A DNA stretch of 64,000 nt from NCBI GenBank assembly GCA_965199825.1, contig OZ241329.1, positions 800,001 through 864,000 on the forward strand. The letters run 5' to 3'. Positions 4,218 through 54,167 of the stretch are shown one piece after another. Both the position numbers and the translations under genes were made by a program. The DNA is from Bdellovibrionales bacterium (lineage in GTDB: Bacteria > Bdellovibrionota > Bdellovibrionia > Bdellovibrionales > UBA1609). The first letter of the stretch is position 1. Every line of letters starts with the position of its first letter. The notes beneath the pieces are model-generated. The model was not told where the DNA came from, made no database searches, and worked only from the letters and a program-made list of their open reading frames with translations.

Positions 4218-5042
4218 CTAGTGGCTATTCTGATGGTGGGCACGATGATGCCCCGAACAAAGAATTGTTAGGTTATCTAGTTCGTTCGTCCCGCCTTCTA
4301 ATATCGGTTTGATATGATGAATATCAATATGTCGCCGCTGCTGGCAGCGCACGCCGTTTTCATCAACATGCATGCATTGACTAGCGCATTTGTGCTGAAC
4401 TTGACGCTTGAGGATGACAGTCATTTTTTGTGAGCCAGTTTTCACAGGTGGGCACGATTTTTTTAGTGGGTCGTTTTTTGATAAAGCGGTTCGGGTGTTA
4501 TCTACCATCGTTTCTTGAATCGTTGCCGCGTGTCCTAATCGCTGACTCAAAAGATCACGCGAGCGTTCGAAGTCTTTAAATTCTTCCAAAGTCATAGCAA
4601 ACCGGATGTCCACTTGGAGTTCATCCCCCGCGTTATAAAGTCGTGCACGCTCTTTGAGTTTTTTTGCGGGTGAGGCTTTTGCCACTTCTTTTTCGAGAGC
4701 ACGCTTGGAGCCCTGTGCAAGTTTCAACCAATGTTCGGCATTTTTAGGAGTGATCACACTGCAAATTCGATTGGCTTTGGAGATCGAAAGTTGGCCCGAC
4801 GCAATTTGTGATTTGAGCTGTGGAATGACGGCACATTTTTTAGCAATTTTATTAAAAATGCTGGTGAGCTCTTCAGACATATTAAGTTTGTTGCAAGTAA
4901 AATCAAAAAGTGATCGACATCCATAAACGTAATGGGTTTTTGCTCGCCAAACATTTTCTATTGATAAGACCAATTCAACATCTGAAATATTTTTGGCCGA
5001 CACAGCTTTGAGTGCTCGAGAATAAATTTTTTGATGATCCAC
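4218..5042 (-). CDS. HNH endonuclease (paralog 1, most divergent copy)
   Basis: C-terminal CxH..RC..RRHIDIHHIKP..GG....NLTILCSGHHRAHH HNH domain; N-terminus homologous to the ORFs at 27474 and 41266 (YGCRSLF motif); RBS AAATAGGAG before GTG. Confidence 0.88.
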   Translation of the reverse strand: MDHQKIYSRALKAVSAKNISDVELVLSIENVWRAKTHYVYGCRSLFDFTCNKLNMSEELTSIFNKIAKKCAVIPQLKSQIASGQLSISKANRICSVITPKNAEHWLKLAQGSKRALEKEVAKASPAKKLKERARLYNAGDELQVDIRFAMTLEEFKDFERSRDLLSQRLGHAATIQETMVDNTRTALSKNDPLKKSCPPVKTGSQKMTVILKRQVQHKCASQCMHVDENGVRCQQRRHIDIHHIKPILEGGTNELDNLTILCSGHHRAHHQNSH

Positions 5043-5134
5043 AATTCGCTCCTATTTAATAAAGCGAAATATATCATAAAAAATATGCGCTGCAAATTGA
5101 TATAAATAAATATTGTAGGTTATTTCTCAAGCGA

Positions 5135-5360
5135 AATTTCCGGCGGTGATATTATCTTTATCAAAAGTTTGAGCGGGCACGATACTTGATCGCTAATTCA
5201 AACCGAAACATTTCGCACACCAGTAGACAGCGCTAGCCCTGGTTACAAATCATAGATGATAAAAACGGTGTGGTTTGTTATTCAACCGAAAAAATGATTT
5301 CGTGCATGAAGGTGAAATAAGATATTGGAAAATGTCGCTCAAGCGAGCGGGCACGATCAC
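5135..5360 (+). repeat. HNH-1 leader with GCGGGCACGA motif copies
   Basis: GCGGGCACGA at 5173 and 5347, plus accessory AATTTCCGGCGG at 5135, within a non-coding AT-rich 410-bp gap upstream of HNH-1. Confidence 0.75.
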
Positions 5361-8623: not shown

Positions 8624-8902
8624 TCGTGAGCACGACAGCTTTGTGGGCACGTAAAAATCTCGAGAGGTGTCAGTCTTTAAATGACTGGGCACGATCAGTT
8701 GAAACTATCGACTCAACAAGAGTTTAGAACACCCTTAAAGATTTCGTTAGAAGCGGGCACGATAATATCTCCGGCGATGTTATTTTATGGGTCAATTAAA
8801 AATTAGCGGGCACGATAAATTCTATCTGATTATAATACCGCGGAGATGTCATTCAAGCTTCTCTCCCACATCATGTGCACGATCAAAGGCTTCTCGAAAA
8901 AA
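8624..8902 (+). repeat. Dispersed GGGCACGA motif field (no adjacent HNH gene)
   Basis: Motif copies at 8628 (GAGCACGA), 8645 (GGGCACGT), 8687, 8753, 8806 and 8875 (GTGCACGA); accessory ATCTCCGGCG at 8767. Confidence 0.8.
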
Positions 8903-9785
8903 GTGGGCACGACAACTTACTGCGGGCACGACAACTTACTTGCGGACACGATAACTTACTTGCGGACACGATAACTTACTTGCGGACACGATAACTTACT
9001 TGCGGACACGATAACTTACTTGCGGACACGATAACTTACTTGCGGACACGATAACTTACTTGCGGACACGATAACTTACTTGCGGACACGATAACTTACT
9101 TGCGGGCACGATAACTTACTTGCGGGCACGACAACTTACTTGCGGGCACGACAACTTACTTGCGGGCACGACAACTTACTTGCGGGCACGACAACTTACT
9201 TGCGGGCACGACAACTTACTTGCGGGCACGACAACTTACTTGCGGGCACGACAACTTACTTGCGGGCACGACAACTTACTTGCGGGCACGACAACTTACT
9301 TGCGGGCACGACAACTTACTTGCGGGCACGACAACTTACTTGCGGGCACGACAACTTACTTGCGGGCACGACAACTTACTTGCGGGCACGACAACTTACT
9401 TGCGGGCACGACAACTTACTTGCGGGCACGACAACTTACTTGCGGGCACGATCACTTACTTGCGGGCACGATCACTTACTTGCGGGCACGATCACTTACT
9501 TGCGGGCACGATCACTTACTTGCGGGCACGATCACTTACTTGCGGGCACGACAACTTACTTGCGGGCACGACAACTTACTTGCGGGCACGACAACTTACT
9601 TGCGGGCACGATCACTTACTTGCGGGCACGATCACTTACTTGCGGGCACGATCACTTACTTGCGGGCACGATCACTTACTTGCGGGCACGATCACTTACT
9701 TGCGGGCACGATCACTTACTTGCGGGCACGATCACTTACTTGCGGGCACGATCACTTACTGTGGGCACGACAACTTACTTGCGGC
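8903..9785 (+). repeat. 20-bp tandem repeat array (consensus TGCGGGCACGACAACTTACT), 42 full units plus two terminal variant units
   Basis: Read directly. 8921-9760 is 42 x 20 bp in variant blocks: B x1, A (GGACACGATAA) x8, hybrid x1, B (GACAA) x16, C (GATCA) x5, B x3, C x8. An identical 19-mer GTGGGCACGACAACTTACT sits at 8903 and 9761. Confidence 0.97.
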
Positions 9786-16492: not shown

Positions 16493-17996
<1,504 letters not shown>

Positions 17997-26215: not shown

Positions 26216-26431
26216 TCAGTCAATAAGCAGATTTTGCAGAGACCAGAGGCTTCCTACGATGAGACAGACGAACCCAAGGTGACGGTGCCCTTGAATTTGT
26301 TTTACAATCGCTTGTGGGAGCCGCTCTTCGGCTGCCTCGATCAGTTTTGGCATGTTCAACACGATTGTCATTACCGCGCCGTAACCAAAGACAAAAAATG
26401 GAAAAATCAAGTCGATTTCTTTGTACGTCAT
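26216..26431 (-). CDS. Small membrane hypothetical protein
   Basis: 71 aa with two hydrophobic helices; co-oriented upstream of xseA. Confidence 0.65.
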   Translation of the reverse strand: MTYKEIDLIFPFFVFGYGAVMTIVLNMPKLIEAAEERLPQAIVKQIQGHRHLGFVCLIVGSLWSLQNLLID

Positions 26432-26749
26432 ACTTTCGTTATCGGTTGAGGCGGATCAAAATGTTACAGGACCTTCAGACATATTTTCTTACGGCATAAC
26501 AATTGATCACTAGCTGTTGGGGTTGGGATTTGCTAAAGTGGAATCTGTTCTTGTGGACTGAAGACAACGTAAATCCTATAAAGAATATTTATGGGGCCTG
26601 TCCCTGGGGATGGTGTGCATGCTCAACTTCGCATTGAGAAGCCTAAAGTTCCTATTATGGGCACCCACTTTAAAAAACATGGGTTTTGCGGATCGATCAG
26701 TTCCACAAGAATTTTTTTTTGCCCTTGGGTGGTTTTCGTTTGTTGGGTT

Positions 26750-27264
26750 TCGTGCCCGCTTTTTTTTGGGCGGTTGAGTTTGTCGTGCCCACATCTTTAT
26801 TTGATTGGCCGAAAAAATCTTTGTTTTTAAAAAGTTTGGTGTTTGTGGAACCATTTCCTTTTTTTGCCTGGCGTGGATTTGAAGCTAAAAATTTTGTCGT
26901 GCCCCCTTTGTGTTTCGGTTGGGCCGAAGTTTTTCGTGACCGTCTTTAGATTCATTAGAGCGAATTTTTTTGTTGTGCCCATTCCTTTAAATCAAATGGA
27001 ATCTTTGTTTTTAGAAGTTTGGTATTTTGTAGGATCATTTAATTGTCATGTTCGGATTTTGTTGGTGGCCGAAGTCTGTCGTGCCCGCCTTGAGATTGTT
27101 TTTTTGTCGTGCCCGCTTCTTAAAATCATAAGGAATTTTTTGTTCTTAGAAGTTTGGTGATTTATAGGAGACTTTACTTTTCTTACCCAGCGCAGATTTA
27201 AACCTAAAGAATTTTGTCGTGCCCATCTTTAGATTCATGAGACCGAATTTTTTGTCGTGCCCGC
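26750..27264 (+). repeat. HNH-2 leader: TTTTGTCGTGCCC(GC) repeat field with higher-order 134-184 bp units
   Basis: Exact TCGTGCCC at 26750, 26783, 26897, 27079, 27107, 27217 and 27255; one-mismatch copies at 26934 and 26973. An AATCTTTGTTTTTAGAAGTTTGGT-like block recurs at 26816, 27000 and 27134. Confidence 0.9.
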
Positions 27265-27473
27265 ACAAATTTTCTTGACGGGATTTTGTTATTGCTTAAA
27301 TGGCCCTGGCTTCTATTTTCAAGCCAAATACCCTTTTTCTGCTCCAAATCATCTCGCAGACATCACCAAGCTCAACAAAGACGCCAACAAATGAACCTGT
27401 GATTCACATCCGACAAGCTGTAAAAATGAAAGATTAGAAACCCGTGGTAATCTCCTCTAAATAGGAGATATTT

Positions 27474-28316
27474 ATGGATCATTCAAAAATTCATCTCAAT
27501 GCGTTGACCGCTGCTGATGCTCATCGCAAAACCGAAATGGAATTGCTCAATGCTTTAGAGCTTGTTTGGAAAAACAAAACCTTTTCGCAATATGGTTGCC
27601 GATCGTTGTTTGAATATTCAACCAAACACCTCAAATTATCCGAAGAGATGGCAAGTATTGTAAACAAAATTGCAAAAAAATTTACTGAACTTCCTGAACT
27701 TAAAGCAGGCATGGAGTCTGGTGAACTTTCACTCTCAAAAGCGAATCGAATCACTGCGGTTGTCACAAAAGAAAATGTGGATCACTGGATGAATTTGGCC
27801 AAGGGCACCAAACGCAATCTCGAAAAACAAATTTCCATGGTCCAACCCGAGAAAGCAATTCCGGAGCGGGCACGACATCAAAAAGCGGGCGACACTTTAC
27901 GAGTCGCGATTTCTTATTCGATGACTCAAGAGGAATTTGCAATGTTTGAACGGACACAAGATCTTTTGAGCCAAAAATTAAAGCGACCGGCCTCGATCGG
28001 TGATGTTCATCTTGCAGCTCTTAAAGAGCTCCAGCAAAAGCTCGACCCGTTAGAAAAACCGATTCGCCAAAAATCAGCGGGCACGACAAAATTGACCATC
28101 GCACTAAAGCGAAAAATCCATCACAACCTGAAAAGTCAGTGCAGTCATATTGATCAATCCGGCGAGCGTTGCCCCGCGCGACGCCACCTTGATGTTCATC
28201 ACATCATTCCTAAATCGCAAGGCGGATCAGATAACGAAGAAAACCTGACCCTTTTATGTTCAGGACATCATCGTGCTCACCATCGAAAGGCTAGGAACTC
28301 CCAAAAAGCGTTTTGA
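27474..28316 (+). CDS. HNH endonuclease (paralog 2, full length)
   Basis: C-terminal CSHIDQSGERCPARRHLDVHHIIPKSQGGSDNEENLTLLCSGHHRAHH; RBS AAATAGGAG; homologous to the ORFs at 4218 and 40598. Confidence 0.9.
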   Translation: MDHSKIHLNALTAADAHRKTEMELLNALELVWKNKTFSQYGCRSLFEYSTKHLKLSEEMASIVNKIAKKFTELPELKAGMESGELSLSKANRITAVVTKENVDHWMNLAKGTKRNLEKQISMVQPEKAIPERARHQKAGDTLRVAISYSMTQEEFAMFERTQDLLSQKLKRPASIGDVHLAALKELQQKLDPLEKPIRQKSAGTTKLTIALKRKIHHNLKSQCSHIDQSGERCPARRHLDVHHIIPKSQGGSDNEENLTLLCSGHHRAHHRKARNSQKAF

Positions 28317-28355
28317 GTCGCTGCGCCAACCTGCGACACTAAATGAAAGAGGTGG

Positions 28356-30053
28356 ATGTTGATGATTTCTCGTTTTTGTTTGGTCTTGATGCTGATCGCT
28401 AGCAATGTAACGCAAGCTGCAAATACAACTCCGCCACCAGCACCTGCTGCGCCCTACTCACCCTTCAATCCCAACGACAGAGCTGCACAATGTTCCTCGG
28501 CAAAGAATGCAATGCAAACAGCGGGCTCCACTTTTAGCACGGCATGTGGAAAAGCGAAGATGAGCAACAAAAATAAAGATTTTGAATATTGCTCTGCGGA
28601 TATTTTAAAATGTCGCTCTTGCGTTGATGGCTCAGATAGCACTTCGATTCCGCCGGGGATAACATGCAACGATGTTAAGTCGTCGTCTAAAGATTCTGAT
28701 TCGTCAGCCAAAGATTCTGCAAGTAAATCAGAATACATCAAGGTCACACCTGATGCCGAATCTACAAAAGGCGAATTTGCAAACTGTCCAAGTCTGGCCG
28801 GCGAAGATATGAAAAATTATATTCAAGAAGTCCGAGAGAGTCAGACAAAAGTGCATGAGCTTACAGATAAAGTTTCTAAAGCCCAAGAGGAACAGCAGGC
28901 GCTCAAAGACGATCTTAATGTTAAAATTGAAGAAATCGAAACGAGTGCTCAAGAAAAAAGTCAGGCCGCCCAAGATGCAGTTCAAAAATATAAAGAAGAG
29001 CTTGTGGATGCTCAAACCCAGATGCTCGACGACATTCAAAAATTGAATGTTCAAGTTACAGAAATAGTTGCCAAAGAGGGCCAGGTCCGTATTCAAAAAG
29101 ATGCCAACCAAGAAAAATATAATGAAATGGTCACAACCGAACAGCTTAAATGTCATGGAACAGCTCTGACAAAAGTTGATGCACTTAGAAATTCACGCTT
29201 GGCCGCACAAGATGCAGGGACTTATACCGCAGGGAATTTCAATAATCTTTTGCAAGGCGTGGGGCTTGATACAAGATCTAAATCTCAATTGCTTGCCCAA
29301 CAATATTATCTTTGGTGCTTACAAGATCAAAGTTATCGTGCCCAAATTTCTACAGGCCTTGAGCAAAAAAGAATTTCGGATAAGTCTGCGGATGCCCAAA
29401 TCGTTGCTTATGATAATCAAATTAAGGGAATCAATGCCCAGATCACTACAATTCAAACAACGAAGTTAGATACCGCAAATCAAAAAGTTTCGGCTCAAAT
29501 TCAGAGAACCCAATCAAAACTCACCACAGATTTACAAACTCTTCAGAAAAAAGAATCGAATATCCGACAAACTAATGCCACTAAAGCCGCAGCAAAAGAT
29601 CGAGAGATCGCAAACTTAAATCAACAACTCGCTGAAGAAAAAGATTATCTTAAGCAGAAACAAGACTATCTTGCTCTTAAAAATAAGTACGGTGCCGGTG
29701 CGATGAGCGATGCCAATGCTTACAGTGATGCAAGCGCAGCGATGGACAGTTATGTTGGAGCGGTACGAACCTACTATAGCAGCTGTTGTAACGATATTAA
29801 ACAAGATCCTACATGTGACCAAAAATCTAATTTTGTTTGCGGAAAAGTAGATCAGACTGCGGATTGCCTCGGTAAGCCAGGGAACCAAAGTCTTTATGAT
29901 TCAACTACCACCCCACCAGCAACAACTGCACCGACAACTCCTGCAGCAGCCCCCGCAAACGACGCACCCGCAACCACCCCCGCCAGCGCAAGACCACACG
30001 GCAGACAAAACGGCGGCCGACGGCCTTCCTCAAGCTCCGACTCCGTCCAATAA
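28356..30053 (+). CDS. Secreted Cys-containing coiled-coil hypothetical protein
   Basis: Signal peptide, Cys-rich N- and C-terminal caps, long Q/K/E coiled coil, P/T/A-rich tail. Confidence 0.75.
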   Translation: MLMISRFCLVLMLIASNVTQAANTTPPPAPAAPYSPFNPNDRAAQCSSAKNAMQTAGSTFSTACGKAKMSNKNKDFEYCSADILKCRSCVDGSDSTSIPPGITCNDVKSSSKDSDSSAKDSASKSEYIKVTPDAESTKGEFANCPSLAGEDMKNYIQEVRESQTKVHELTDKVSKAQEEQQALKDDLNVKIEEIETSAQEKSQAAQDAVQKYKEELVDAQTQMLDDIQKLNVQVTEIVAKEGQVRIQKDANQEKYNEMVTTEQLKCHGTALTKVDALRNSRLAAQDAGTYTAGNFNNLLQGVGLDTRSKSQLLAQQYYLWCLQDQSYRAQISTGLEQKRISDKSADAQIVAYDNQIKGINAQITTIQTTKLDTANQKVSAQIQRTQSKLTTDLQTLQKKESNIRQTNATKAAAKDREIANLNQQLAEEKDYLKQKQDYLALKNKYGAGAMSDANAYSDASAAMDSYVGAVRTYYSSCCNDIKQDPTCDQKSNFVCGKVDQTADCLGKPGNQSLYDSTTTPPATTAPTTPAAAPANDAPATTPASARPHGRQNGGRRPSSSSDSVQ

Positions 30054-40597: not shown

Positions 40598-41266
40598 TCA
40601 ACCGGTTTTTTCCGCTCTGTGATGGGCACGATGATGTCCGCTGCATAAAAGCGTCAGATTTTGTTCTATGTTTGTGCCGCCTTGTGATCGTGGGATGATA
40701 TGATGAATATCAAGATGACGGCGTTCAGTGCATCTAATGCCGTCTGCATCTTTGAATGTGCATTGACTGTTATGAACTTGATGAAGTTTTCGCTTAAGAG
40801 TGATGGTCAATTTTGTCGTGCCCGCTGATTTCTGATGTATCGGTTTTTTCAACGGATCAAGTTTTTGTTGCAACTCTTCAAGAGCTGCAAGATGAACCTC
40901 ACTGATCGAGGCTGGCCGCTTTAATTTTTGGCTTAAGAGATCTTGTGTCCGTTCAAACATTGCGAATTCTTCTTGGGTCATCGAATAAGAAATCGCAACT
41001 CGTAAAGTGTCGCCCGCTTTTTGATATCGTGCCCGTTCAGGAATTGCTTTTTCGGGTTGGACCTTTGCGATTTTATTTACAATACTTGCCATCTCTTCGG
41101 AAAGTTTTAATTCCTTGGTCGAATATTCAAAAAGCGAACGACAACCGTACTGAGAAAATGTTTTATTTTTCCAAACGAGCCCAAGCGCATTGAGCAATTC
41201 CATTTCAGATTTGCGATGAGTGTCGGCCGCTTTCTTTGCTTCGAAATGAATTTGAGAATGATTCAT
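40598..41266 (-). CDS. HNH endonuclease (paralog 3, in-frame internal deletion of 54 aa relative to paralog 2)
   Basis: Start MNHSQIHF at 41266 with RBS AACAGGAG; long identical stretches with 27474-28316; intact HNH motif RCTERRHLDIHHIIPRSQGG...NLTLLCSGHHRAHH. Confidence 0.85.
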   Translation of the reverse strand: MNHSQIHFEAKKAADTHRKSEMELLNALGLVWKNKTFSQYGCRSLFEYSTKELKLSEEMASIVNKIAKVQPEKAIPERARYQKAGDTLRVAISYSMTQEEFAMFERTQDLLSQKLKRPASISEVHLAALEELQQKLDPLKKPIHQKSAGTTKLTITLKRKLHQVHNSQCTFKDADGIRCTERRHLDIHHIIPRSQGGTNIEQNLTLLCSGHHRAHHRAEKTG

Positions 41267-41498
41267 AAATTTCTCCTGTTTTTGTGAGGAGTGTAACATG
41301 AGTTTTGCGAGTGCGTTTTTATGGATGGCGAAAATCAATATTAGTCGGTCGAATTTCACAGGTGATTTGGCTCTAGCAGCGCTTGGAGAGGTCATCGCAG
41401 CAAAAAAGTAGAAAATGTTTAGTAATCGCGATACAGGTCAAATGAGCGAGCAAAAAAACACGTCAATAAAAATATGATTCGTGGAAGATTTTAATTTG

Positions 41499-41706
41499 GG
41501 AGGCACGACAAAATCTCCGGCGGTTTTAAAATTGAGTTTGATTTAAAAACACTGGGCAACACAACTAAGCTTTTTTGATTCAACGAAGTTTCTAACATTA
41601 CTAGTTTCATCGTTTATAAAAATAATCTGGATTATTTAAGCGGGCACGACAAAATCCCCAATAATCAAAATTAAATGTAATTCTAAATCAACGGGCACGA
41701 TAACTT
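41499..41706 (+). repeat. HNH-3 leader with GGGCACGA motif copies
   Basis: AGGCACGACAAAATCTCCGGCGG (41501), GGGCAAC (41554), GCGGGCACGACAAAAT (41640), CGGGCACGATAACTT (41692). Confidence 0.8.
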
Positions 41707-53141: not shown

Positions 53142-53684
53142 TTACCCTGCGGTTTTTTTAAAGAAATCCCGCCAATACTCTTTACAACTTTTCTCAAAAT
53201 GTTTGCGAGCGGCTTTTCCAAAGTGCGCTTGAATTAAATTTGCTTCTAAATAATCAAACATGCGAGTTACGTCTCGCCCTTTAGTGATGATGCGAGTGAA
53301 AAGAACCGAATCCCAAAAACGCCCGAACCTTTTTCCTTTTTTTGCACGAACAGTTATTCGTGCGATCACTCCCGCAACAACTCTAAAAAAAGTTTTAACC
53401 AGGGCACGGTCTTGAAACCGAATGATGAGGTGAAAATGGTTGCTCACATTGCTGTAAGCCGCAATACCTACCCCATACTTTTTAGCTTTAGAAAAAATTA
53501 AATTTTTATACTTGATCTGCATATCAAATTTTTTGAAACTTTGGTCACCCTTGGCATGCTGAGATTTAAGAATGACGTGGTGCAAACGCTTTTTGTCTAA
53601 CGGACGCACGGTTTTCCGACGACCTTTCATTTGTCCACCATATGATTTTTGTTTTGATAAATTAAAAAGTGGCAGCTGTTTCAT
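53142..53684 (-). mobile_element. Y1/HUH transposase (IS200/REP-associated tyrosine transposase-like)
   Basis: HHVILKS strand, HUH motif SNHFHL, RFW and DYLEAN catalytic Tyr; 180 aa; no tnpB next to it. Confidence 0.85.
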
Positions 53685-53730
53685 TTATGTAAACTATATC
53701 TATATATGTGAAAATGCAATAGAAACGCTG

Positions 53731-54167
53731 GAGTAATATCATTTTACTTGAGGAAAAAGTTGATTTCTTTCGTGCTCGATTCAATCCTAGGTTCGGTCAG
53801 GGCAATGTCATTTTCTTTGAGTAAATCTTTACTAAATTTATATTTTACTGCGCGATCCGAGGCTCGATCGAGGGCAATTTTATTTTGTTTAAATAAACCG
53901 TATTAACAATTTGATTTCTTCTTGCTCGATTCCTTTTCAGATTCGGTCAGGGCAATGTCATTTTTTTTAATAAAACTTTATTGAGTTTATTTCTGTCCTA
54001 ATGAAGCCAACGCCAGGCTCGGTCAGGGCAATGTCATTTTCTTTAAAGCGTTTTAACGAATCTAATCCCTTGTGCTCCTACCAATCATAGGCTCGGTGGG
54101 GCAATGTCATTTTGTTCAATCAATATCTATTTTCCTCACCATCATTTCGGTCGAAGTAATATCATTT
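53731..54167 (+). repeat. Direct-repeat field TCGGTCAGGGCAATGTCATTTT, ~75-bp period, upstream of the Y1 transposase
   Basis: Exact copies at 53793, 53943 and 54019; variants at 53864, 54093 and 54147; partial copy at 53731. Confidence 0.9.

Follow-up and report, generated by a model that had tools for sequence, protein, structure and literature searches.

The locus analysed here raises the question of whether the short repeats that precede its HNH endonuclease gene, all of which read in one direction, belong to that gene, and of what kind of genetic unit the gene and its repeats would form together. A sequence-only reading of the window (the whole stretch of 64,000 nucleotides that was analysed) had reported three paralogous HNH genes with oriented repeats upstream, and all three genes carry a Pfam HNH match. 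Upstream of the gene at 27474, the nine TCGTGCCC copies counted in that reading (seven exact, two with one mismatch) have been recovered, all of them on the + strand (exact copies at 26750, 26783, 26897, 27079, 27107, 27217, and 27255; one-mismatch copies at 26934 and 26973), and no antisense copy with up to 1 mismatch is found in 26717-27473. Other parts of that description are corrected by our analyses. The leader had been described as AT-rich and non-coding; the motif field is there, and the DNA to its left is occupied by a host 6S RNA gene. HNH-3, listed as a paralog, has the HNH domain but lacks an internal segment of the protein, and the stray exact copies in the window, put at about four, are five in number (7, 10314, 16640, 29336, and 57322). 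An accessory motif reported in the leaders of HNH-1 and HNH-3 and at the orphan locus is present at 5136, 8767, and 41513, with a further copy at 17403, but a looser form of it occurs in only 8/27 HNH leaders of the genome and in 2/17 leaders of RAYT-like Y1 genes; as a part of the element it was rejected on the former count. The motif copies inside the gene, a fixed-length module of TTGAC and -10 boxes, and the domain architecture of the protein are points beyond that reading, and they are listed with the other features in Table 1.

Table 1. Coordinates of features in the window, with the basis of the assignment where one is given.
Feature	Position	Strand	Basis
6S RNA gene (host; left boundary, outside the element)	26544..26716	+	Rfam RF00013, 61.1 bits vs cut-off 46.4
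Motif field, 7 exact and 2 one-mismatch TCGTGCCC(GC), all gene-sense, locus-specific	26750..27264	+	
Unit of 28 bp from motif to motif, not present in a related strain (run X3)	27077..27104	+	
Proximal motif, 20 bp 5' of TTGAC; approximate left end of the unit common to recent duplicates	27255..27264	+	
Sigma70 -35-like box TTGACG	27275..27280	+	
Spacer, constant in length and variable in sequence, its T and A tracts in mirror symmetry; TTGAC to TG = 170 bp	27281..27444	+	
Extended -10-like box TGnTAATCT	27445..27453	+	
Ribosome-binding site AAATAGGAG	27459..27467	+	AAAYAGGAG match in 24/27 paralogs
280-aa ORF: ParB/KorB-like helical DNA-binding domain, ribbon-helix-helix, linker, HNH	27474..28316	+	
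Predicted ParB/KorB/Spo0J-like DNA-binding domain, aa 1-127	27474..27854	+	Structure model
In-gene motif copy, E-R-A-R codons	27868..27875	-	
Predicted ribbon-helix-helix domain, aa about 140-197	27891..28064	+	Structure model
HNH nuclease domain	28077..28307	+	Pfam; structure model
In-gene motif copy, linker, A-G-T codons	28079..28086	-	
Terminal motif copy in the H-R-A-H codons, here with one mismatch; lies at about the right end of the unit	28271..28278	+	
Paralog HNH-1, two upstream motifs, shortened 88-bp module	4218..5356	-	
Orphan motif field, 44-copy 20-bp tandem array, without a gene	8687..9784	-	
Paralog HNH-3, internal deletion (about aa 69-119), 168-bp module, two exact upstream motifs	40598..41700	-	

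The tie between motif and gene that had been proposed from the window extends to the whole genome as far as the leaders are concerned. The 2.84 Mb surveyed contain 27 HNH paralogs with an N-terminus and one HNH-only fragment, and TCGTGCCC is found upstream of 27/27 paralogs in the sense-only orientation claimed for it, with 146 sense and 0 antisense copies at 30-900 bp from the start (one antisense copy appears within 1.5 kb upstream). The copy nearest to the module lies 19-52 bp upstream of TTGAC in 18/24 paralogs, and the shared ribosome-binding context also recurs across the paralogs (Table 1). Genome-wide, 522 exact motif copies are present where Markov models of order 2-4 predict 53-68, and the word RTCGTGCCCRC occurs 393 times here vs 0-10 times in each of 40 relatives. 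The arrays are not exclusive to the genes: motif neighbours within 60 bp of each other form 272 same-strand pairs vs 1 opposite-strand pair, the same-strand spacings are 16-20 bp in 221/272 cases, in 13 arrays with unrelated spacers, and 9 of these 13 tandem arrays lie at least 4 kb from any HNH start. With respect to such arrays, it should be borne in mind that slippage alone can make them grow.

Rearrangements that are bounded by motif copies have also been found. A truncated paralog just left of the window matches the 89%-identical HNH-1 as far as the final base of the linker motif and no further; in two genes the 3' end is duplicated, with the duplications anchored at the motif; and in a related strain exactly the 28 bp between the 27079 and 27107 copies are missing (one contig, at a depth of 3.9). 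Among duplicates of 87-96% identity, the homology is limited to an interval that begins at about -222 to -293 and ends at +804 to +852, and the upstream motif fields differ between duplicates that are 92-96% identical; the unit is therefore about 1.04 kb long and the fields arise in place. The ends of the unit are ragged by tens of bases.

Comparison with other genomes provides evidence that the unit occupies sites that are empty in relatives. Among the 6S loci of the family, xseA adjoins the 6S RNA gene in 27/30, and an HNH gene is found only in the locus of this genome; at 7 other 6S loci, which are HNH-free and thus represent empty sites, the order is retained up to the downstream neighbour. 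In another genus, the element of genome G134 is absent from 15/15 congeneric loci in which both flanks could be aligned, the gap between the flanks being -1 to 55 bp at empty sites vs about 1,560 bp when filled, and in the reciprocal case G134 lacks an element common to G153 and G080, the gap there being 13 bp. Insertion sites thus vary between congeners. The copies in this genome are old (dS 0.18-2.5), and the site at 27474 is likewise filled in the related strain. At the elements, duplicates, and empty sites compared, neither a transposase nor a terminal inverted repeat or target duplication was seen; the nearest empty sites are about 77% identical, a divergence in which short target duplications could be hidden. 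Circle joints and empty alleles were likewise not found in the contigs of runs X1-X3, contigs being assemblies that drop rare forms. From these comparisons, the unit is likely to be a transposase-free mobile element of about 1.04 kb with one gene and 27 copies in this genome.

The protein encoded by the element is predicted to combine two DNA-binding domains with a nuclease. In a full-length structure model (mean pLDDT 84.9), residues 16-127 resemble the DNA-binding domains of ParB, KorB, and Spo0J (Z 6.2-7.0), residues 140-197 resemble ribbon-helix-helix proteins (viz. Arc, TraM, NikR, AmrZ, and PutA; Z 4.5-5.2), and residues 202-278 resemble HNH nucleases (Z up to 7.4, for GVE2 HNH). When residues 1-130 are modelled alone (pLDDT 94.4), the top four of 48,161 chains are KorB, ParB, KorB, and Spo0J, with Z of 7.3, 7.1, 6.5, and 6.1 and rmsd of 3.5-7.2 over 96-109 aligned residues, so that the matches span the whole domain. 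A Foldseek search with the same residues places ParB/Spo0J in its first eight rows at E 0.25-0.84, which is not significant, and individual alignment members match HTH_ParB (one member, E 0.011) and Pfam ParG (one member, E 6e-4). An Atlas search with the N-terminal domain gave nothing above 0.76 among named clusters. The models suggest that the N-terminal domain likely has a ParB-like DNA-binding fold, at middling scores. In the nuclease domain, C223, C233, H242, H243, N257, C262, H265, H266, and H270 are invariant in 32 sequences. The gene is under purifying selection (dN/dS 0.04-0.10 in 10 pairs), and 24/27 copies are intact. With a threshold of E 1e-30, the family comprises 3,443 representative clusters, its members are annotated as 'HNH endonuclease' only, and family matches are present in 80/151 genomes of the order. 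Homologs carry the names Pseudobdellovibrionaceae and Bdellovibrionales, which points to a host in the Bdellovibrionota. With these queries, phage, plasmid, and viral-contig collections returned no full-length match.

The motif is also embedded in the coding sequence. Besides the copy in the E-R-A-R codons, one copy lies in the linker that follows the ribbon-helix-helix domain, where its orientation varies by subclade (the sense form being read as S-C-P codons), and another near the 3' end. The codons of R132, A133, and R134 are fixed at 0.90-0.95 among paralogs, and the H-R-A-H codons use CGT in 25/25 and GCC in 24/25 paralogs; when 79 conserved degenerate columns are ranked by fixation, these five motif codons come first (0.90-1.00 vs a median of 0.50).

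The sequence-only reading had made its proposal depend on homologous genes elsewhere also having upstream repeats. TCGTGCCC itself was found upstream of 0/57 homologous loci in 18 other genomes, yet other motifs are found there. A word of at least 12 GC-rich letters is shared by the upstream region and the linker in 24/91 loci (10/24 in this genome and 14/67 elsewhere, involving 11/32 genomes) vs 0/91 in each of two N-terminal controls, in a test from which AT-rich words were filtered out; linkers from other genomes, used as a further control, reached 12 letters in 3/91 rows. In the same GC-filtered test, a shared word of this length is missing in 53/67 loci outside this genome. In held-out loci, a shared word occurs in 12/59 vs 3/59 controls. 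Palindromes with 5-bp arms around a 4-bp centre are found in the linker in 31/94 loci vs 2/94 controls, the pattern having been chosen on this first set of 94 loci, and in the held-out set they are found in 17/59 vs 1/59; with 4-bp arms the excess is weak (42 vs 25; held-out 20 vs 13). The arm-C-N4-G-arm shape of these palindromes is shared with the parS consensus TGTTTCAC-GTGAAACA and the NBS consensus TATTTCCC-GGGAAATA (PMC7383237).

Three other clade motifs, each searched in the same 5 genomes, occur only where the clade is present and at its elements; the motifs of G051 and G015 lie 47-56 bp before TTGAC and 6-49 bp past the stop. Close relatives share motifs, the clade of one genome varies the 4-bp centre, and one genome may hold two clades with two motifs. 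By these comparisons the motif is clade-specific, and other genomes use other, often parS/NBS-shaped palindromes that are located upstream, in the linker, and sometimes past the stop. In the word of this genome, the left half is that of the G051 palindrome and the right half is unmatched; the motif here would thus have a visible direction because the site is an asymmetric derivative of a family palindrome.

Between the proximal motif and the gene lies a module whose length is conserved and whose sequence is not. In a normal sigma70 promoter the distance corresponding to that from TTGAC to TG is 20, and no canonical -35/-10 pair is found on the + strand in 26400-28400. TTGAC lies 168-171 bp before the extended -10 box in 24/25 of the paralogs analysed, and HNH-1 and its sister have a module of 88 bp; the identity of the spacer between paralogs is 36% at the median. 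Modules are found across Bdellovibrionota and Myxococcota, and a spacing of 166-171, 175-177, or 184-189 bp is present at 93/114 loci in 32/43 genomes, Myxococcota included (related genomes in this count are not independent). Among held-out loci, 30/63 show the spacing (21 at 167-169 and 9 at 185-187) vs 0/173 control windows, one locus of the 63 (L210) being a repeat of a previously seen locus. The spacing class follows the protein clade, and one genome contains both classes. To our knowledge, no promoter type explains sigma70-like boxes spaced by 167-170 / 185-188 bp in two phyla. The base profile of the leader is mirror-symmetric at one register (r 0.24-0.40, near 0 elsewhere). Stand-alone modules without a gene were considered and rejected, as 33 box pairs at 168-171 bp occur genome-wide, of which 24 are the elements, with about 12 expected by chance; none was seen beside the orphan arrays. 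We read the module as a duplex-DNA structure of fixed geometry. Its boldest form, a looped promoter spacer, is possibly correct, and is weakened, as a helical-phase wrapping of the module would be, by two observations: a 10.5-bp period was not found in the leader module, and the spacing classes are 18-19 bp apart, i.e., not whole helical turns.

The claim that a selfish HNH element acts on its own motif is supported in part by the predicted ParB-like fold, the clade-specific motifs, the motif-bounded rearrangements, and the empty sites; the binding and nicking are what we infer from these. Our preferred reading, which on sequence comparison and structure models we consider moderately probable, is that of a one-gene element whose ParB-like/ribbon-helix-helix/HNH protein binds and nicks a clade-specific, parS-like site carried by the element itself, with repair multiplying the sites and copying the unit. 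The candidate sites would be those at the left end of the element, in the linker codons, and at or near the 3' end. A dimer would bind the site through its ParB-like domain, as ParB does on parS, and staggered nicks beside the site would be repaired to yield a 16-20-bp duplication that includes the site; by repeated rounds of this, oriented fields and orphan arrays would grow where they stand. Nicks at two terminal sites could start the copying of the unit, dependent on host repair and without a transposase, to a new intergenic site, and the same sites may double as operators that hold the nuclease low. The extended -10 box would drive transcription of the gene, and TTGAC, which lies 167-170 (or 185-188) bp farther upstream, would form part of a fixed-geometry duplex-DNA structure, possibly a looped-out sigma70 spacer. 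The most far-reaching version of this proposal, a widespread and so far undescribed class of mobile DNA that needs no transposase, whose ParB-derived reader, joined to an HNH nickase, writes and multiplies its own parS-like sites and moves between them, with a split sigma70 promoter, a looped-out 150-/165-bp spacer, and each clade as a site-specific nickase reprogrammed by nature with a target readable from its linker codons, is offered tentatively, and we would regard it as doubtful in its entirety.

One alternative is that the motifs are autoregulatory operators only, kept by selection for a KorB-like long-range repression of a toxic nuclease, with slippage making the arrays, host recombination spreading the genes, and no motif being cut. 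The predicted ParB/KorB-like fold, the presence of sites on both sides of the promoter and within the gene in fixed codons, and a fixed-length module that could serve as a repression loop are all consistent with it. We nevertheless consider it rather unlikely, since at 9 of the 13 arrays there is no gene that could be regulated, a spacing of 16-20 bp has been reached independently in separate arrays, one breakpoint falls exactly at the motif, and motif-anchored duplications are found downstream of two genes. The strong purifying selection, the age of the copies, the presence of the family in 80/151 genomes of the order, and the phage and plasmid collections that gave no match for this query would also suit domesticated host genes (defence or repair nucleases) associated with a signal of the host chromosome (Chi, KOPS, or a parS-like site, for example). 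This is improbable in our estimation: the motif is at background in the 40 relatives, two clades with two motifs are possible in one genome, and insertion sites differ between congeners. The isolated single copies, 65 in number, equal the Markov expectation; they show no strand switch, and on this latter ground the motif as a replichore-oriented host signal was rejected.

A repeat-containing RNA partner had been raised as an alternative by the sequence-only reading. Such an RNA, with the leader guiding the HNH protein as in HEARO/omega systems, draws some support from the fixed length of near 170 nt after a -35-like box, from the resemblance of the HNH domain to that of IscB, and from the 6/44 leaders that fold with z below -2. 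The mean folding z is only -0.6, native leader halves pair no better than chimeric halves from different loci, the one Rfam match is the neighbouring 6S RNA, and the near absence of indels at 36% identity is unlike a structured RNA; the leader as a structured RNA or as a single-stranded hairpin promoter was rejected on the weak folding, the lack of excess pairing, and the absence of an Rfam family, and with an IscB score far below its cut-off and confined to the HNH part we find a guide RNA quite improbable. Highly improbable, finally, is that the repeats were made by RAYT-like Y1 (HUH) proteins, with the HNH genes as passengers of intergenic sites rich in REP, although the genome has 17 Y1 genes, one of them has an upstream TCGTGCCC array, and TGCCC is common to the motifs of both. 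The Y1 genes serve as a same-genome control, as 14/17 have an oriented leader motif of their own, which differs from TCGTGCCC and is absent from 27/27 HNH leaders, whereas TCGTGCCC is found in 27/27 HNH but 1/17 Y1 leaders and is fixed in HNH codons; a Y1/RAYT origin of TCGTGCCC was rejected on the different motif of the Y1 leaders.

Among described systems, RAYT/REP(IN) (also TnpA-REP or REPtron) is close in organisation, being described as a nuclease gene flanked by its clade's own short repeats, which are also dispersed or in tandem in the genome (PMC3337134; 10.1101/279083). The HNH gene likewise has short repeats of its own beside it, with further copies scattered over the genome. Its enzyme, unlike that of RAYT/REP, is HNH and not HUH/Y1 (PF01797), Pfam giving HNH only in the three window genes, and the 17 Y1 genes of the genome sit at other loci than the HNH genes. 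RAYT genes are single-copy (PMC3337134), unlike the 27 HNH copies at sites changing between congeners; and in place of the inverted doublets of REPINs there are direct, head-to-tail sites of 10-16 bp, as the pair counts given above indicate. Sites inside the coding sequence and a fixed-length promoter module further distinguish the HNH element.

The DUF222-HNH genes of mycobacteria (REP13E12) are likewise multicopy genes that encode a helical domain and a C-terminal HNH. The profile of our HNH family aligns with a DUF222-labelled protein over its full length (probability 99.8), that protein being a match of the family and not a mycobacterial 13E12 protein, and DUF222 is present on 12% of the members of an Atlas neighbour cluster; Pfam DUF222 (PF02720) has 0 matches in the genome and matches 1/32 alignment members. 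As judged by these profiles, the HNH family is a remote relative of DUF222-HNH. REP13E12 is listed as a repetitive element (PMC10589994), and mycobacterial DUF222-HNH members are described as LexA-controlled (PMC4181829). In the DUF222-HNH literature searched, a cognate motif, a ParB-like fold, a split promoter, or empty sites were not found described.

The protein would resemble ParB, Noc, and KorB in its DNA-binding fold, which is predicted at the middling scores given above. Unlike them, it has no CTPase (ParB/Srx) domain and no Pfam ParBc match, its DNA-binding-like domain beginning at residue 1, its gene has no parA neighbour, it is fused to a nuclease, and its site is carried by the gene itself. 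IscB/OMEGA/HEARO systems resemble it in their related HNH domain, multicopy selfish genes, and conserved non-coding leader, but the match to IscB (NF040563) reaches 32 bits vs 175 and covers HNH residues 211-273 only, RuvC is absent, a structured leader RNA is not supported, and there are no IS200/605 ends. Homing endonucleases cut a site that they lack and home to one allele. The HNH element would be like them in a nuclease-driven spread through host repair, and unlike them it carries several candidate sites and occupies unrelated loci. Insertion sequences are comparable in size and in having one ORF, a stop near the right end, an intergenic position, and sites that are empty in relatives, but neither a DDE, HUH, serine, or DEDD transposase nor inverted repeats or a target duplication were seen here. 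The literature covered, outside which most subscription papers lie, yielded no account of the element, of the sites that it carries, or of its split promoter boxes. As far as tested, the feature is real and general and falls outside the known kinds, its mechanism being our interpretation.

If the preferred reading is true, these elements would represent a mode of DNA mobility in bacteria that operates without a transposase, and a second, independent origin of systems that pair an enzyme with its cognate repeats, beside RAYT/REP. The spacing of the boxes by 167-170 / 185-188 bp is open to a direct reporter test. The family would further be a natural source of numerous small nickases, each specific for a site that sequence analysis can predict, and it would give the long-unexplained DUF222-HNH (13E12) kind of gene a function that can be tested.

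HNH-1, one of the HNH paralogs in the window, is 89% identical to a truncated sister copy, and the two copies flank the prkA operon as direct repeats. An additional upstream stretch of about 60 bp is also common to the two, and in both the leader module (the interval from the TTGAC box to the extended -10-like box) is shortened to 88 bp. In HNH-3, another paralog of the window, an in-frame deletion of about residues 69–119 has removed half of the predicted DNA-binding domain, and the HNH domain is intact despite this N-terminal loss. Elsewhere in the source genome (G000), the HNH-coding parts of the paralogs at G000:C1 positions 37218 and 1170848 are identical, while their N-terminal parts differ (dS 0.42), which points to gene conversion among the copies.

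The oriented HNH motif is also found in arrays that lack a gene, eight of which are present in this genome besides the one in the window. Another repeated word, ACCTTCGYTCRC, occurs in 112 copies genome-wide and is frequently located at the ends of HNH-motif arrays; it shows no clear association with HNH or Y1 leaders in this genome. In three elements of another genome, G015 (L039, L040, and L042), the 70–80 bp immediately 3' of the stop codon are also present, inverted, upstream of that same element, and in G036 (loci L002, L025, L026, L027, and L028) a REP-like hairpin repeat, seen in several elements of the clade, immediately follows the stop codon. In genus g59 (L181, L185, L198, L201, and L205), a perfect palindrome of 25–27 bp, of another kind, is located 440–680 bp upstream of several elements from different clades.

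Features of the window and their positions
Feature	Position	Strand	Remark
HNH-1	4218-5356		sister copy at G000:C1:798484-799300
Orphan array	8905-9784		44 copies of a 20-bp unit with the HNH motif
6S RNA gene	26544-26716	+	divergent from xseA
HNH-3	40598-41266	-	in-frame deletion
RAYT-like Y1 (HUH) locus	53142-54109	-	one of 17 loci in G000
TGACANTGCCC copies (n=4)	53810, 53960, 54036, 54109		at the Y1 locus

Among the family's 30 6S loci, 27 keep this order of xseA and the 6S RNA gene.

The RAYT-like Y1 (HUH) gene of the window has 16 further copies in the source genome. This family has a distinct leader motif of its own, TGACANTGCCC, which is oriented and non-palindromic and is present in 14 of the 17 Y1 leaders (37 copies in sense, none in antisense). 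The Y1 family and TGACANTGCCC represent a second enzyme-plus-motif system, parallel to the HNH system, within the same genome.
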